From a phage: a stretch of 64,000 bases of DNA. Position 1 is the stretch's first letter. The number at the start of each line of letters is the position of its first letter. The notes beneath the pieces are model-generated. The model ran no database searches. It was not told where the DNA came from and was given only the letters and a program-made list of their open reading frames with translations. Made by a program: the position numbers and the translations under genes. Location of the stretch: sequence record PZ445554.1; one strand, given 5' to 3'. Below are positions 9,692 through 38,367 of this stretch, one piece after another.

Positions 9692-10162
9692 TTAATCATG
9701 TTTCCACACCCCATCGGTATTTGACCAAAGCCGCTGATTATCTGATCCTCGCCACAGCTTTTTAGTCGGAAGATTTTTCTCATACTTCCCATCAATAATA
9801 ACATCAACATATTTAAGCATTTCTAGTTGTTTAATATCTTCAAACTTATATCCTGTCCACAACCAAATGCTTTTATTGGGATAAAGATTTTTTACTGTTT
9901 GAACGATGCAATGAATAACATCTCGGTTATCAGGATAGAGAGGGTCTCCTCCAGTTATAGTTAATCCTTCTATATAATCATTATTCAAACATTCAATTAA
10001 TTGTTCTAGTGTTTCACCAGTGAATGGAATACCATTTCTAGCATTCCATGTTGATTTATTATAACACCCTTCACATTTATGCAAACAACCTGTAACGAAA
10101 AGAACGACCCTGCAACCAGGGCCATTCACAAAATCACAAGGATAAAATCTATCATAATTCAT
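9692..10162 (-). CDS. nrdG: anaerobic ribonucleotide reductase activating protein (radical SAM)
   Basis: 156 aa; CLHKCEGCYN radical-SAM cysteine cluster; 4-nt overlap with nrdD. Confidence 0.9.
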   Translation of the reverse strand: MNYDRFYPCDFVNGPGCRVVLFVTGCLHKCEGCYNKSTWNARNGIPFTGETLEQLIECLNNDYIEGLTITGGDPLYPDNRDVIHCIVQTVKNLYPNKSIWLWTGYKFEDIKQLEMLKYVDVIIDGKYEKNLPTKKLWRGSDNQRLWSNTDGVWKHD

Positions 10163-11976
10163 TGATGCTTAACCCTATGCATGATTTCTTTATTTTTACC
10201 GAGATTAAATCCGCGTTCGTTAGGATTTCCCAAATAACCACATGTTCTTCTTATTGTGTTCATCTTTTTAGGATCAGTTTCTCCACAAATAGAACAAACA
10301 AATCCGTTTTCAGTAGGAGTCATTTCATGGGTACTTCCGCATGTAAAACATTTATCTACCGGCATGTTAACACCAAAATAATCTAAATGTTGTGCAGCAT
10401 AATCCCATACGGCCTCAAGACCCTTTAAGTTATTTTTCATATCAGGAAGTTCAACATAAGAAATGTGACCACCTGTCGCAATGAAATGATATGGCGCTTC
10501 ACGAGAAATCTTTTCAAACGGAGTAATATTTTCTTCTACTGAGACATGGAAACTGTTAGTGTACCAGCCTTTATCGGTAACATCTTTTACGCTTCCATAT
10601 TTTTCTGTATCGAGTTTACAGAAGCGATAACAAAGGTTTTCAGCAGGAGTCGAATATAAACTAAAAGCAAATCCGGTTCTTTCAGTCCACTGTTTAAGAT
10701 GAGCATTCATTTTAGTTAAAATTTCTCGTCCAATATCACGACCGACAAGAATATTCAATTCGTGAATACCAATGTATCCTAAAGACACTGAACTTCTACC
10801 GTTTTTAAATAACTCAATTATGTCGTCATCAGGTTTAAGACGAACCCCAAATGCACCTTCTTGGTAAAGAATAGGAGCAACAGTAGCTTTAACTCCTTTT
10901 AAGGAACTAATTCTACACATCAAAGCTTCAAAACATAAATCCATTCGTTCATTGAATAATTCAACAAATTTCTGTTCATTGAACTGTGTTCCAATATAAG
11001 AATCTAACGCGATGCGAGGAAGATTCAATGTTACAACACCAAGATTATTACGTCCATCAAGAATTTCATTGCCAGTCGAATCTTTCCATACGCTCAAGAA
11101 ACTACGGCAACCCATTGGAGAAACAGGAACAGATGAACCAGTGATAGCTTTATTATTCTTAGCTGAAATAATATCAGGATACATTCTTTTGCTTGCACAC
11201 TCTAGAGCAAGCTGCTTAATATCATAGTTCGGATCGTCTTTATAAAGATTAACACCTTCTTCAACGAACATAACAAGCTTAGGGAAAATAGGAGTTATCC
11301 CATCACGACCAAGACCTTTAATACGATTTTTCAGAATTGCTTTCTGAATCATTCGTTCAGTCCAGTCAGTTCCCGTACCAAATGTAATTGTTACAAAAGG
11401 AGTCTGTCCGTTTGAACTAAAGAGAGTATTTACTTCATATTCATAAGCTTGGAATGCATCGTATACGTCTTTTTCTGTTTTAGATTGAGCATAATTCAAC
11501 GCATCAGCGATTTGCCATTTTTCTGCATCCTCAATATGTTTTGCATAGGTGCGTTTAACATAAGGAGAAAGTACTTTATCTACATTCGCAAAAGTCGTTC
11601 CGCCGTATTGGTGAGAAGCAACCTGTGCAGTAATTTGTGCCATAATTGCAGTAGCAACGCCAATTGATTTAGGAGTTTCAATCTGTGCATTACCAAGCTT
11701 AAATCCGTTCTCAAGCATTCCTTTTAAATCTACTAAACAGCAATTAGTAAATGGAAGAGCAGGGGAATAATCAATATCATGGAAATGAATAATTCCGCTT
11801 TCATGCGCTTTCATAATAAAAGACGGGACCATATTTTTGGCAATGTGTTTAGACACAATACCAGCCATAAGGTCCCGTTGAGTTGGAAAAACACGAGAAT
11901 CTTTATTAGCATTCTCGTTTAAAAGGTCTTTATTAGTTTTATGAATCAATCCTTCAATTTCTTTTTCAATTGTCAT
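10159..11976 (-). CDS. nrdD: anaerobic ribonucleoside-triphosphate reductase (glycyl radical enzyme)
   Basis: 605 aa; C-terminal glycyl-radical motif RTCGYLG and Zn-ribbon cysteines (CFTCGS...CSICG); one uninterrupted ORF. Confidence 0.95.
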   Translation of the reverse strand: MTIEKEIEGLIHKTNKDLLNENANKDSRVFPTQRDLMAGIVSKHIAKNMVPSFIMKAHESGIIHFHDIDYSPALPFTNCCLVDLKGMLENGFKLGNAQIETPKSIGVATAIMAQITAQVASHQYGGTTFANVDKVLSPYVKRTYAKHIEDAEKWQIADALNYAQSKTEKDVYDAFQAYEYEVNTLFSSNGQTPFVTITFGTGTDWTERMIQKAILKNRIKGLGRDGITPIFPKLVMFVEEGVNLYKDDPNYDIKQLALECASKRMYPDIISAKNNKAITGSSVPVSPMGCRSFLSVWKDSTGNEILDGRNNLGVVTLNLPRIALDSYIGTQFNEQKFVELFNERMDLCFEALMCRISSLKGVKATVAPILYQEGAFGVRLKPDDDIIELFKNGRSSVSLGYIGIHELNILVGRDIGREILTKMNAHLKQWTERTGFAFSLYSTPAENLCYRFCKLDTEKYGSVKDVTDKGWYTNSFHVSVEENITPFEKISREAPYHFIATGGHISYVELPDMKNNLKGLEAVWDYAAQHLDYFGVNMPVDKCFTCGSTHEMTPTENGFVCSICGETDPKKMNTIRRTCGYLGNPNERGFNLGKNKEIMHRVKHQ

Positions 11977-21262: not shown

Positions 21263-21292
21263 ATAGTACCATAAAGCTTTATGCTTGTAAAC
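21263..21292 (-). promoter_or_regulatory. T4-type early promoter
   Basis: GTTTAC-N18-TACTAT (minus) followed by conserved leader ACAACTATCAACTG and GGAG RBS of the ATPase gene. Confidence 0.5.
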
Positions 21293-21322
21293 CGTTTTGT
21301 GAAAAATTTTTGAAATAAAAAA

Positions 21323-21340
21323 GGGAGCCCGAAGGCTCCC
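21323..21340 (-). terminator. rho-independent terminator
   Basis: GGGAGCC-TTCG-GGCTCCC hairpin immediately after the nucleotidyltransferase stop, then TTTTTT. Confidence 0.55.
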
Positions 21341-28734: not shown

Positions 28735-29196
28735 TCATTGAGTTTTAATTACTGCTTTAGAAGCCTTTCCTGGTAAACGACGACTGTTAATAATTGCCAT
28801 CCTACATTGAAGTGACGGGTCTTTGAACTTCTCGTTAGGTTTACAAACTGTAAATCCAAGCCAAAGATTTCCATCTGTGATTTCTAAACGTCCAGGACGA
28901 TATTCAACCCCATCAATAAAATCCTCGTCAATGTCAGGACGCGGAGGCATACTCAGGAATTCATTAACTTCTAAAACATGGTCTTTTATTTTATGGAATA
29001 ATTCAAAAACATATGTCTCATCAATCTCCCGCTGAATTGCGCGATCAAGAAGATGCTGAGAATATTTTAGATGAAACGATGAGACCCTTGCTGCTTTTGA
29101 TGCCTCACGAATCTCATTGTTAATTTGACGAAACTCCGACTCAAAGTGACGACGAAGCTTATTTCGACGGATAAAAACTTCTGTATTGATAGTCAT
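28735..29196 (-). CDS. regB: site-specific endoribonuclease RegB
   Basis: 153 aa; MTINTEVFIRRNKLRRHFESEFRQINNEIRE... recognised as T4 RegB. Confidence 0.9.
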   Translation of the reverse strand: MTINTEVFIRRNKLRRHFESEFRQINNEIREASKAARVSSFHLKYSQHLLDRAIQREIDETYVFELFHKIKDHVLEVNEFLSMPPRPDIDEDFIDGVEYRPGRLEITDGNLWLGFTVCKPNEKFKDPSLQCRMAIINSRRLPGKASKAVIKTQ

Positions 29197-29223
29197 GTTG
29201 TTCTCCTCTTAACTGATAGAAAA

Positions 29224-29253
29224 ATTATACCACAGTCAAGAGGAAAAGTAAAC
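29224..29253 (-). promoter_or_regulatory. T4-type early promoter upstream of regB
   Basis: GTTTAC-N18-TATAAT with TGG extension; GAGGAGAA RBS follows. Confidence 0.5.
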
Positions 29254-29255
29254 AG

Positions 29256-29576
29256 TTATTCTTTAAATCTAATCAATTTATTCATAGACTTTGAAACTTC
29301 TGCACGAACCTCATGTAGATTTTTGAGCTGTTCAAGACGCTGCGTATAGTAAGCAATTTCATCTTCTTCGAGACAGTCCTGCGAATCTTCTTTAAGATAA
29401 CGTGCATAGTCCTGAAAAGCGTTACGGATTACTTCCTGGAAGTCATCAAGACTTTGAATTTTCTTAGGAGCAGCAGATACACGACGAGGGGCAGTATAAT
29501 ACTCATAACCAAACCCTGCGCTTAATTGAGCCATTAGTATTTTTCCTCTGGTTGGAACACTGCACGACAAGCCCAC
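29256..29576 (-). CDS. hypothetical protein
   Basis: 106-aa ORF (likely start MAQLSAGF). Confidence 0.5.
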
Positions 29577-29836
29577 ATACTGGCTTCTTTGAGTTTCGTT
29601 TTAGCAATAGTTAACTGATCGAGGCTTTCGGCGTAATTCTTCGCGAGTTCATCATCTTCACAGCTATCAAATGCTTCCCAAAATTCATCGTATAAAGCAT
29701 CAAAGATAAGTCCTAAACGAACTTCAGCGTCTTTAATAGCATTTACTTTACCGATTTTTTCGTCGGTATGTGGCTTATAACCTTTAATATCTTCAATCAT
29801 ATTTGACTTCCTCACCAGTACATAAATCGTATTCAA
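29534..29836 (-). CDS. hypothetical small helical protein
   Basis: 100-aa ORF (likely start MIEDIKGY); by position could correspond to T4 vs.4, not verifiable here. Confidence 0.5.
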
Positions 29837-30014
29837 CTAAACGAATAGGTTCATGAATGCCATATCCCTGAACAGAAATTTCTGTAGTAGGATAAATTCC
29901 ATTAATATCACCCATGTTCCATGCTTCGTTAAATTGCTGTTCGCCTGAATTACTAAACCATTCAGCGAAAGCATTTAGCACATCTTCAGAACCTTCAATA
30001 ATTATCTTTGCCAT
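29793..30014 (-). CDS. hypothetical protein
   Basis: 73-aa acidic ORF. Confidence 0.5.
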   Translation of the reverse strand: MAKIIIEGSEDVLNAFAEWFSNSGEQQFNEAWNMGDINGIYPTTEISVQGYGIHEPIRLVEYDLCTGEEVKYD

Positions 30015-30376
30015 TACAAACTCTCGGTAAAGGTACGAGCGATAACATCGCGCTGCTGTTCCGGAGTCAGAGAGTTAAAGCGAACTGCATAACCGGATAC
30101 ACGGATGGTCAGCTGCGGATATTTTTCCGGATGCTTAACTGCATCTTCCAGAGTTTCGCGACGCAGAACGTTAACGTTCAGGTGTTGACCACCTTCAATT
30201 TTAACTGTAGGCTGTTGCTCAATTTCAATTTCACGGGCATGCAAACCGTAGAAAATTTCTGGGTCTACAAAAGAGTCCTCTTTAAAGGTTTTGGAGACAA
30301 TAATTCGTGCTTGAATACCATCTTCAAAATAAATAGTACCTTTATGTGTGCCTTCAAGAATTTGATATGCTTTCAT
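30014..30376 (-). CDS. autonomous glycyl radical cofactor (GrcA/YfiD-like)
   Basis: 120 aa; C-terminal [59 protein letters not shown] is the PFL/GrcA glycyl-radical domain (RVSGY). Confidence 0.85.
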
Positions 30377-30383
30377 ATAAACC

Positions 30384-30713
30384 TCAATTAGAAAATAAAT
30401 TTATCCAAGATTGTTCTTTAATTAAAAATGGCTCAGAATCATATGCCATTAAACTTTGCGTAATTAATCCTTTAAAAGGTCCATCAATAAATTCCATGGT
30501 AAAATATGGAATTTTATTCATTAGCCGTGCATTAGGAGCAGTGCACAAAACTCTGCATCCTTTGAATACGCCTTTTTGTAATTTGTATTGCTTAGGATAA
30601 AATTCACTTAAAATGTTATTTTTTGCCAAAATTTCAAAATGATTCACCAATTTATTTTTAATAGTTTTTGGCGAAAAATAAAGATATTCGAAAAGCTGAG
30701 TGTCTGTCATCAT
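30384..30713 (-). CDS. hypothetical protein
   Basis: ORF 30384..30764 trimmed to ATGATGA-coupled start. Confidence 0.5.
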
Positions 30714-31249
30714 TGCATTCCAATCACAAAAAATTGAGGACGAGTAATACCACCAATGCAACATTTACTATTACAGCAGTAGTGTACAGTGTCAATATGG
30801 ACACTATAAATCTTATCCATATCAGGAGATTTGACAGGCTCATCAATTATATACAAAATTCGCGAAAGCGATAAACCTCTGAACTTGCTTCCTTTATTAC
30901 CAATAAAACTGCGCACAGAATCAGTAAATAAACGAAAACGTATATCATCATTAGAATAACGCGAAAATTCCTTTTTAATGTTATTTGCAGAAATTTTAGC
31001 GTAAGCTGAAGTATTAGAAAGAACAATAACTGTTCCGCCATCATACAGCCAATTAGCAGCAAAGTTAGTCACAGCAATTGATTTACCAGATTGACGTCCA
31101 CCGTCTAGTCGAAGTGTGCAGTACTGTTTAAGTAATTCTTCAAATGGCGGGATATATTCGTTTTTACAAATTTCTTCTACTCTAGCATCAGAATGGTGTG
31201 TAAAAGCATTCATCAGGGATAGATAAGGACCAGTTAAAAATGTTCTCAT
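30710..31249 (-). CDS. small P-loop NTPase-like protein
   Basis: 179 aa; Walker A GGRQSGKS and Walker B-like ILYIIDEP. Confidence 0.55.
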   Translation of the reverse strand: MRTFLTGPYLSLMNAFTHHSDARVEEICKNEYIPPFEELLKQYCTLRLDGGRQSGKSIAVTNFAANWLYDGGTVIVLSNTSAYAKISANNIKKEFSRYSNDDIRFRLFTDSVRSFIGNKGSKFRGLSLSRILYIIDEPVKSPDMDKIYSVHIDTVHYCCNSKCCIGGITRPQFFVIGMQ

Positions 31250-31389
31250 TTCTTCTCTCTAAGTTTGGGCCATTCCATGGCGCATGAATTGTCCATTTCT
31301 GTATTTACCCATTACCGCGCTTTGGCTCGACCTTATCACAGGTTGGCGGGAATCCCTCATAGAATCATGAGGTCCAGGTTGTTCCCATA

Positions 31390-31863
31390 TTATTTGAACG
31401 ATTTAACGTACTGAATAGAACCTTTACTATTCACGAAAGCGATTTTACCATTTTTATTATACATGGTAGCAGTACGTTGATAGCCATAAGTTTGTTTACC
31501 AGATTGATAACCAACTAATGCAAAATTATCTTCACCCATTTTATTCTGTTTAGCGCGAATGCGTTCATGACCATGTGCCATAAGAACCTTAGCATCACCA
31601 GTTGCAATGGATCGACGAGTTTTTTCATCTTCAACTGTATTAACAAAGTCGTCAAATGAATCAAATTTAGCATGAGATTTATTATACAATTTTCCATCTA
31701 CTGCATAATTATATCCCTGTACATCCATCTCAACTTCTGTACCATCATCCAATACAGCAGTGATTTTTTGACCTTTTTTAAATTTCAAAAGATCAGTAAA
31801 AGATTCAGCAATAATTTGAGAATTAATAGCTGCTTCAGTAATAAATTCTTGATATGTTTTCAT
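31390..31863 (-). CDS. internal protein-like (capsid targeting sequence-bearing)
   Basis: 157 aa; N-terminus MKTYQEFITEA matches the T-even internal-protein targeting leader. Confidence 0.6.
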   Translation of the reverse strand: MKTYQEFITEAAINSQIIAESFTDLLKFKKGQKITAVLDDGTEVEMDVQGYNYAVDGKLYNKSHAKFDSFDDFVNTVEDEKTRRSIATGDAKVLMAHGHERIRAKQNKMGEDNFALVGYQSGKQTYGYQRTATMYNKNGKIAFVNSKGSIQYVKSFK

Positions 31864-31872
31864 ATGTTTCCT

Positions 31873-32289
31873 TTAAATGTAAATATTTTTGCCGTAATAC
31901 TTGTACCAGTGTGGCTTCATTAAAATTTTTTCATCAAGTCGTTGTTGACTCAATTTAATAGCTGATTTGCATGGATTATAATCATTTTTCCATTCTGCTG
32001 GAATATCGCTGATGTCAGGAACTTCAGTATCTTTTATACTGAACCCGCGTTTTAAGCATTCCGTTATAATGTCTAATTGACGCTTTCGCAAAAATTCTAA
32101 CTTATCGTAAAAGAAAGTAACATGACCAGAACCTAAAATAAATTTAGAAGATATTTTAAAATCTTTAACGCGCTTACCGTTTGCCACATGCTTACGAACT
32201 ATACCAAAAACACGTGGCAATTCACGGTATTCTGCTATTAAATGTTGATCAGCAAGTTCAGATACTAAAGTCAAATTAATACGAGTCAT
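31873..32289 (-). CDS. denV: endonuclease V (pyrimidine-dimer DNA glycosylase)
   Basis: 138 aa; [43 protein letters not shown] recognised as T4 DenV. Confidence 0.92.
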
Positions 32290-32314
32290 TTTATCCCTCC
32301 AAGTAACTGTGAAT

Positions 32315-32344
32315 ATACTATCACAATTCTAGGAGAAAGTAAAC
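32315..32344 (-). promoter_or_regulatory. T4-type early promoter upstream of denV
   Basis: GTTTAC-N18-TAGTAT (minus), GGAGGGA RBS follows. Confidence 0.45.
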
Positions 32345-32348
32345 AACT

Positions 32349-32879
<531 letters not shown>

Positions 32880-37412: not shown

Positions 37413-37489
37413 TGGCCAGGGTGAAAGGATTCTAACCTTTAACCTGCGGTTTAGAGGACCGCTACTCTATACAATTGAGTTACACCCCG
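37413..37489 (-). tRNA. tRNA-Arg (anticodon TCT)
   Basis: Cloverleaf: acceptor CGGGGTG/CACCCTG, D-stem ACTC/GAGT, anticodon stem GCGGT/ACCGC loop CCTCTAA, T-arm AAAGG-TTAGAAT-CCTTT, CCA encoded; unusual C33. Confidence 0.6.
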
Positions 37490-37615
37490 TAATTAGTTCA
37501 CAGCAATACCTACTCCAACAATCAAGATGTCTTCACACGAAATTAAGAGAAGAGTGATCAGTTCAACCCCTATAATCGCGTCAAGTAGATATTAATGTGA
37601 CAACTGTCACAAGTT

Positions 37616-37690
37616 TGGCGGACGTGATAGGATTCGAACCTATAACCAATCGCTTAACAGGCGATCGCTCTGCCATTGAGCTACACATCC
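37616..37690 (-). tRNA. tRNA-Asn (anticodon GTT)
   Basis: Acceptor GGATGTG/CACGTCC, D-arm GCTC-AATGGCA-GAGC, anticodon loop CTGTTAA, T-arm ATAGG-TTCGAAT-CCTAT, GCCA 3' end. Confidence 0.7.
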
Positions 37691-37694
37691 AAAT

Positions 37695-37781
37695 TGGTGG
37701 GGAGTGGTGGAGTCGAACCACCCGAGTCGCAATGACAATGAATTTACAGTCCACACCGCTACCTCTACGGGATAACTCCCC
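37695..37781 (-). tRNA. tRNA-Tyr (anticodon GTA)
   Basis: Class II tRNA, long variable arm; acceptor GGGGAGT/ACTCCCC, anticodon loop CTGTAAA, T-arm GGTGG-TTCGACT-CCACC, CCA encoded. Confidence 0.6.
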
Positions 37782-37794
37782 CTAATTCGTAATT

Positions 37795-37869
37795 TGGTGA
37801 CCCTGGGTGGAATTGAACCACCATCTGGCGATTATGAGTCGCTTGCTTGAACCTTCCAGCTACAGGGCC
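37795..37869 (-). tRNA. tRNA-Ile (anticodon CAT, lysidine type)
   Basis: Anticodon stem-loop GCGACTCATAATCGC identical to E. coli tRNA-Ile2; acceptor GGCCCTG/CAGGGTC; T-arm GGTGG-TTCAATT-CCACC; CCA encoded. Confidence 0.65.
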
Positions 37870-37870
37870 T

Positions 37871-37946
37871 TGGTGCTGATTGACGGAATCGAACCGCCGA
37901 CGTCCTCATTACAAGTGAGGTGCTCTACCTACTGAGCTAAATCAGC
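37871..37946 (-). tRNA. tRNA-Thr (anticodon TGT)
   Basis: Acceptor GCTGATT/AATCAGC, D-arm GCTC-AGTAGGTA-GAGC, anticodon stem CCTCA/TGAGG loop CTTGTAA, T-loop TTCGATT, CCA encoded. Confidence 0.7.
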
Positions 37947-37951
37947 AAAAC

Positions 37952-38041
37952 TGGCGGAGGCGATAGGATTTGAACCTATGAGTCGCCGGAGCGACTGCCG
38001 GTTTTCAAGACCGGTGCATTAAACCACTCTGCCACGCCTCC
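37952..38041 (-). tRNA. tRNA-Ser (anticodon TGA)
   Basis: Class II; acceptor GGAGGCG/CGCCTCC, anticodon stem CCGGT/ACCGG loop CTTGAAA, long variable arm, T-arm ATAGG-TTCAAAT-CCTAT, CCA encoded. Confidence 0.7.
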
Positions 38042-38043
38042 AG

Positions 38044-38117
38044 TCTCCGTGGCAGGATTTGAACCTACGACATTCTGCTCCCAAAGCAGACGCTCTACCA
38101 AACTGAGCTACACGGAG
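38044..38117 (-). tRNA. tRNA-Pro (anticodon TGG)
   Basis: Acceptor CTCCGTG/CACGGAG, D-arm GCTC-AGTTTGGTA-GAGC, anticodon stem TCTGC/GCAGA loop TTTGGGA; CCA not encoded. Confidence 0.65.
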
Positions 38118-38127
38118 TAAATTAAAT

Positions 38128-38201
<74 letters not shown>

Positions 38202-38206
38202 AAATT

Positions 38207-38293
38207 TGGTGCGAGAAGTGGGACTCGAACCCACAAGGAAATCATTCCGCAGCATTTTAAGTGCTGTGCCTTTACCAATTTGACCATTCTCGC
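38207..38293 (-). tRNA. tRNA-Leu (anticodon TAA)
   Basis: Class II; GCGAGAATGGTCAAATTGGTAAAGGCACAGCACTTAAAATGCTGCGG...GGGTTCGAGTCCCACTTCTCGCACCA recognised as T4 tRNA-Leu. Confidence 0.8.
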
Positions 38294-38294
38294 G

Positions 38295-38367
38295 CTGGGA
38301 ATAAAGGACTCGAACCTTTGCATCCTGGAATCAAAATCCAGTGCCTTACCAACTTGGCTAATTCCCA
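38295..38367 (-). tRNA. tRNA-Gln (anticodon TTG)
   Basis: Acceptor TGGGAAT/ATTCCCA, anticodon stem CTGGA/TCCAG loop TTTTGAT, T-arm AAAGG-TTCGAGT-CCTTT; CCA not encoded; 1 nt from tRNA-Leu. Confidence 0.7.

Follow-up and report, generated by a model that had tools for sequence, protein, structure and literature searches.

Why does a virulent phage carry a gene of which one half is nearly identical to a host chromosomal gene, while the other half is its own? In the 64,000-nucleotide stretch of phage DNA analyzed here (PZ445554.1; the window), an earlier note made from the letters alone had placed a GrcA/YfiD-type glycyl-radical spare-part protein at 30014–30376, and had suggested that it could rescue oxygen-damaged host pyruvate formate-lyase (PFL) during anaerobic infection. 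The locus raises two questions: what the protein does, and how its C-terminal half came to match that of the bacterium.

The vs.6 gene and its product

The window belongs to the genome of a T4-type phage, a Tequatrovirus, and the open reading frame is gene vs.6. Megablast bears out the phage origin: of 730 matching phage records, 720 cover 80% or more of the ORF, and identity reaches 99.7%. At the DNA level it is 98%–99% identical to vs.6 of AR1 and T4. From low to high window coordinates the genes run vs, vs.1, regB, vs.3, vs.4, a vs.5-like gene, vs.6, vs.7, vs.8, Ip4, denV and e (lysozyme), and the order of regB and vs.3 to vs.8 around vs.6 agrees with that in T4 and AR1. The T4 gene, which likewise lies between vs.5 and vs.7, downstream of denV and vs.8 and upstream of regB, encodes a protein of the same 120 residues, 118 of them identical; T4 differs by Q54P and R73H. 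The exact protein of the window is found on 167 contigs in public databases, where it is called "autonomous glycyl radical cofactor," an annotation already present on hundreds of phage records. The features discussed below are collected in the table.

Table. Features of the window, with positions numbered from its first nucleotide
Feature	Coordinates	Strand	Remarks
nrdG, 156 aa	9692..10162	-	Pfam Fer4_12 + Radical_SAM; radical-SAM activase
nrdD, 605 aa	10159..11976	-	Pfam NRDD (571.8 bits) + Gly_radical; anaerobic ribonucleotide reductase
Match to E. coli strain BE104	21274..21325		52 nt
vs.4	29534..29836	-	Pfam Acb2_Tad1_hairpin, 70.4 bits
ORF antisense to vs.6	30008..30391	+	127 aa, TTG start
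vs.6 CDS	30014..30376	-	ATG start, 120 aa + stop; phage GrcA/Y06I ortholog
vs.6 3′ half, aa 60-120	30017..30199	-	glycyl-radical domain, host-derived patch
Perfect 151-nt run vs E. coli grcA	30048..30198	-	alignment to the strain ER1709 copy
RVSGYAVRF glycyl-radical motif	30077..30103	-	residues 92-100; aligned to PflB G734 region
Gly95 codon	30092..30094	-	radical glycine; RVSGY = residues 92-96
vs.6 5′ half, aa 1-59	30200..30376	-	phage-specific, AT-rich; remote homolog of disordered GrcA N-terminus
Predicted GAGG Shine-Dalgarno	30382..30385	-	5 nt before vs.6 ATG; read from sequence
TGA stop of vs.7	30384..30386	-	shares bases with the vs.6 GAGG site
TTGACA-17-AATAGT	30795..30767	-	upstream of vs.7; consensus match alone
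Internal-protein locus	31390..32289	-	e, denV, Ip4, vs.8
tRNA cluster	37413..38367	-	ten genes: Arg, Asn, Tyr, Met/CAT, Thr, Ser, Pro, Gly, Leu, Gln
Asn/Tyr tRNA part	37653..37786	-	83%-88% match to tRNA genes on some E. coli plasmids

The vs.6 product has a mass of 13.9 kDa and contains no cysteine. Its sole Pfam match is Gly_radical (PF01228), which covers residues 60–101 at 67 bits (cutoff 22.2). The C-terminal 60 residues, previously described as nearly identical to those of E. coli GrcA, are in fact fully so, with 60/60 identities between E61–L120 of vs.6 and E68–L127 of GrcA. Comparison with the structure of E. coli GrcA (PDB 6owr) gives E = 9e-42, well outside anything that chance would produce, and the assignment of this intact 120-residue ORF to the GrcA/YfiD type therefore holds. 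Residues 58–120 align with PflB 697–759 (1h16 and others) with 49/63 identities (78%; E = 5e-26), and the G734 loop of PflB, RVSGYAVRF, lies within this alignment. Replacement of the radical glycine, the change that the earlier note had named as contradicting its proposal, is not seen on alignment to GrcA and PflB: Gly95 is intact in RVSGY. Unlike PflB, vs.6 has neither the catalytic barrel of ∼700 residues nor the Cys418/Cys419 pair; lacking the barrel and any cysteine, it is no lyase on its own.

The N-terminal half is a different matter. Residues 1–59 are phage-specific and ∼30% identical to the corresponding part of GrcA, compared with which vs.6 is seven residues shorter overall. BLASTP of this half against GrcA 1–66 returns a weak but specific match (E = 3e-5, 13/39 identical, 33%). 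It is because of this divergence that vs.6 scores 154.9 bits over residues 20–120 against TIGR04365, the NCBIfam GrcA equivalog, and stays below the curated cutoff of 170 bits; the T4 ortholog nonetheless carries the GrcA name in RefSeq. The structural hallmarks of GrcA are all present in vs.6, and the TIGR04365 cutoff is the one formal failure. The genomic settings also differ, with host grcA at a regulated locus between ung and eamB and vs.6 in a phage operon. Scanning 29000..32500 for promoters and terminators gave 14 promoter-like sites, where chance alone predicts 13.5; the one upstream of vs.7 given in the table is a consensus match alone. No support as a gene was found for the ORF on the opposite strand; in all likelihood it is a shadow ORF, produced by the codon bias of the host-like segment.

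Several features of the genome around vs.6 were recorded in passing. The window phage differs from T4 in having Ip4 in place of ipII/ipIII and a larger vs.5. The order at its internal-protein locus may be compared with e, ipIII, ipII, denV, vs.8 in T4 and with e, Ip4, vs.8, without denV, in AR1. Two genes downstream of vs.6 lies vs.4, which encodes Acb2, known from T4-like phages as a cyclic-nucleotide sponge that counters CBASS. Both nrdD and nrdG, which the earlier note had ascribed to the phage, are present in the window (together 9692..11976, minus strand). Here nrdD is a single uninterrupted ORF; T4 nrdD is split by a group I intron, and the window phage appears to carry the intron-less allele.

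Probable repair of host pyruvate formate-lyase

The function of vs.6 has a published basis. E. coli YfiD and T4 Y06I were found by Knappe and coworkers to be spare-part proteins of ∼14 kDa (Wagner et al., 2001; pmid 11444864, as cited in PMC8683613). According to the passage of PMC8683613 that cites this work, PFL activating enzyme provides them with a glycyl radical, and activity is regained in the complex with oxygen-cleaved PFL; the finding is cited again in a 2026 review (PMC13450708). In YfiD, the C-terminal half is a duplicate of the radical domain of PFL; the N-terminal ∼60 residues, which are disordered, aid binding of cleaved PFL and permit activation, and there is essentially no activation unless cleaved PFL is present (PMC8683613). 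Y06I of the 2001 paper is T4 vs.6 (UniProt P13316, GRCA_BPT4, "autonomous glycyl radical cofactor"). Thus, both the identity of vs.6 and its PFL-repair function are already known, from the T4 protein and from the RefSeq annotation.

The radical domain of the window protein is identical to that of GrcA and its N-terminal half is distantly homologous, and the GrcA/YfiD mechanism can therefore be assigned to it with high confidence. By analogy with the T4 ortholog in vitro, vs.6 is very probably a spare part for repair of the host's O2-cleaved PflB, and the benefit to the phage is what we infer from this role. The earlier proposal of PFL rescue is thus supported through the 118/120 identity to a protein whose in vitro rescue of PFL is published, as reported in the citing passage of PMC8683613. 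Since the N-terminal half matters for binding and activation in YfiD and has diverged in the phage, vs.6 may differ from YfiD in affinity or regulation.

In the proposed mechanism, O2 meeting active PflB reacts with the Gly734 radical, and the chain is cut at this position, leaving the enzyme dead. The vs.6 protein (14 kDa, its radical domain the same as that of host GrcA) would bind the cleaved PflB, and host PflA, using SAM and reduced flavodoxin, would install a new glycyl radical on Gly95. The radical loop of vs.6 would then enter the active site of PflB, and pyruvate would again be converted to acetyl-CoA and formate; for the T4 ortholog, this series of reactions has been described in vitro. 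T4-type infection shuts off host expression, leaving the cell with no new PflB (a 170 kDa dimer) and no new host GrcA; because resynthesis of both would be blocked, a spare part made by the phage would preserve fermentative ATP and formate. Under microaerobic gut conditions, vs.6 would keep existing PflB running, and the ATP supply would be sustained by way of acetyl-CoA, acetyl-phosphate and acetate. E. coli-type class III ribonucleotide reductases use formate as their reductant (Mulliez, 1995, as cited in PMC11226230). PFL-derived formate could therefore feed the phage enzyme encoded by nrdD and nrdG, which would tie vs.6 functionally to these two genes. An advantage of vs.6 during anaerobic infection is what we infer from this scheme; a search of the searchable literature found no in vivo phenotype, such as burst size, for a vs.6 mutant.

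Whether PflB is the right target has to be considered, and vs.6 might instead be a spare part for another glycyl-radical enzyme, namely host TdcE (2-ketobutyrate formate-lyase) or phage NrdD. TdcE has a PflB-like C terminus, and E. coli genomes contain a median of three places resembling the vs.6 3′ half, of which the top matches listed are grcA and the others presumably pflB and tdcE. NrdD, too, loses its C terminus upon exposure to O2, its gene and nrdG are encoded on the same strand ∼18 kb from vs.6, and a comparative paper of 2006 speculated, from the common Pfam domain, that the protein serves nucleotide metabolism (PMC1524935). The NrdD part of this idea is rejected, as vs.6 has no detectable similarity to the NrdD of the window (BLASTP E = 2.7) and the radical motifs are unlike: that of NrdD is RRTCGYLG behind a zinc ribbon, that of vs.6 RVSGYAVRF. 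Because the vs.6 domain matches that of host GrcA at every residue and the PflB C terminus at 78%, a target other than PflB is unlikely, and TdcE is a possible extra target, not a substitute for PflB.

Viruses often mimic host domains exactly, and it could be asked whether vs.6 is a decoy or inhibitor that soaks up the PFL activase or blocks PflB and thereby redirects host metabolism. The strong divergence of the N-terminal half, which controls binding and activation in YfiD, would fit such a role. A decoy would need no radical glycine, however, and in vs.6 the glycine and the whole catalytic loop are strictly kept. Moreover, the T4 ortholog restores PFL activity in vitro and does not inhibit it, according to the passage in PMC8683613. 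On these two grounds, a decoy is very improbable.

Least probable of all is that vs.6 is a piece of host DNA with no function, acquired not long ago and awaiting loss: its 3′ 183 nt are indeed ∼97% identical to E. coli grcA and host-like in composition (GC 0.49 against ∼0.35 in the 5′ half), but the ORF is intact and 120 residues long in all T-evens, it is syntenic in >900 full-length phage copies, its 5′ half is old, phage-specific and under purifying selection (dN/dS ∼0.15 among phages), and the T4 protein is biochemically active. Homologs are intact in >1,500 phage records of Straboviridae, T5-like and jumbo phages, with divergent forms kept in several phage families; neither frequent frameshifts or stops among natural isolates nor an N-half dN/dS near 1 was seen. 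Repair of host PflB thus remains the preferred reading of vs.6.

The 3′ half of vs.6 and host grcA

The two halves of the gene relate to the host in different ways. In the 3′ 183 nt, 177 positions (96.7%; 96%–98% overall) are identical to E. coli grcA, and the perfect 151-nt run begins at position 2 of the C-half. In the 5′ 177 nt, identity is ∼47% for DNA and ∼30% for protein. GC content rises from 0.35 (GC3 0.24) in the 5′ half to 0.49 in the 3′ half. Measured against E. coli grcA, dS has reached saturation in the 5′ half, compared with 0.12 in the 3′ half. For these comparisons the 3′ half of vs.6 was set against loci L002:1302-1685, L011:3019-3402, L003, L004 and L016-L018. T4 vs.6 shows the same mosaic with E. 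coli grcA.

The match is to the normal chromosomal locus, since grcA at that position is ∼97% identical to the patch in 5426/5426 complete E. coli genomes. When the whole 64-kb window was compared with the 5,426 genomes by megablast, the grcA patch was the sole stretch found in every genome. The other matches were tRNA-like, on a few plasmids, and a single 52-nt stretch in one genome; the latter is 96.2% identical to an unannotated region of strain BE104 and matches no other genome. Between E. coli and Klebsiella pneumoniae grcA, the N-half has a dS of 0.63 and the C-half one of 0.54. The bacterial genes are therefore not mosaic, and the direction of transfer is from host to phage.

The same architecture, a variable N-terminal half joined to a conserved radical domain, occurs in Jiaodavirus, Slopekvirus, the Krischvirus RB49, T5-like Tequintavirus and jumbo phages. 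In these other phages the 3′ halves are 71%–86% identical to E. coli grcA at the DNA level, in contrast to ∼97% for vs.6 of the window. Copies from the sister genus Jiaodavirus, represented by Klebsiella phages, match Klebsiella grcA instead: the 3′ half is of K. pneumoniae type, with perfect runs of 101–131 nt, and the residues LLDAVE are those of K. pneumoniae where the E. coli type has LEDAVK. When one genome for each of 185,579 species was searched for a 44-nt stretch specific to the Jiaodavirus 3′ half, exact matches turned up only in Klebsiella (three records) and in one grcA each of Serratia and Pantoea.

Reciprocal BLAST searches give a corresponding picture. With K. pneumoniae grcA as the query, 106 phage records match at 95%–99%, all of those listed being Klebsiella phages, and the E. 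coli T-evens match at 86%–88%. With E. coli grcA, 633 phage records match at 95%–99%, those listed being T-evens of E. coli, Shigella, Yersinia and Salmonella, including RB69, and the Klebsiella phages match at 86.5%–89%. The cross-host identity of ∼87% equals the divergence between E. coli and Klebsiella grcA themselves. Carriers of the E. coli-type 3′ half belong to Tequatrovirus and Mosigvirus. In neither search did a phage record match beyond the 3′ half of host grcA, and the 5′ junction is common to both lineages, the match always beginning at host nt 199–202. In bootstrap analysis of the 183 columns, the own-host genus provides the nearest bacterial gene in 99.8%–100% of replicates, and in 96%–99.9% phage and host lie closer together than E. 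coli and Klebsiella do; the base-by-base comparison drew on a single reference genome for each species and on a few phages.

On the evidence of these sequences, the pattern indicates at least two independent host-to-phage gene conversions in the 3′ half of vs.6. Within a genus, a test of independent conversions by N-half and C-half differences between PSE-D1 and 311F was not significant (p = 0.23). The common junction probably marks the end of the homology needed for recombination, or may instead reflect selection to retain the phage-specific N-half. Selection for a precise match to host PflB and PflA may lie behind the host-like 3′ half.

Tracking of the host is not seen everywhere. In the Klebsiella phage PSKm4DII (Slopekvirus; L005:401-763), the C-half protein is identical to Klebsiella GrcA at 61/61 residues, but the synonymous sites are saturated (dS >1.4), and RB49, a phage of E. 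coli, also carries LLDAVE. For these reasons Slopekvirus was not counted as host tracking, and its Klebsiella-type C-half could be an ancestral retention, an old conversion or the outcome of selection for host-type residues. The compared copies of RB49, the T5-like phages and Slopekvirus show no tracking of the host at the DNA level, and the phenomenon is therefore a property of Tevenvirinae and not universal.

Implications for T-even phages

The gene itself is a textbook-level T4 accessory gene, here re-identified. A search of the searchable literature found no demonstration of what the phage gains from it at low oxygen, as in the gut, the habitat of T-evens, nor of a coupling of formate to NrdD. 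The match of the 3′ half to the host emerged as a side result. A keyword search of the same literature, with key older papers lying outside it, found no description of the vs.6 mosaic. That the radical-domain half is repeatedly overwritten, through homologous gene conversion, by grcA of the current host genus while the N-half evolves separately, and that this process is both real and previously undescribed, is a proposition we regard as evenly balanced. If true, it would be an unusually clean and recurrent case of host DNA flowing into a virulent hydroxymethylcytosine phage. The host-matching 3′ half would then offer a natural experiment on the rate at which a virulent phage recombines with the host chromosome, and on the need for an exact fit of a spare part to the enzyme it repairs.
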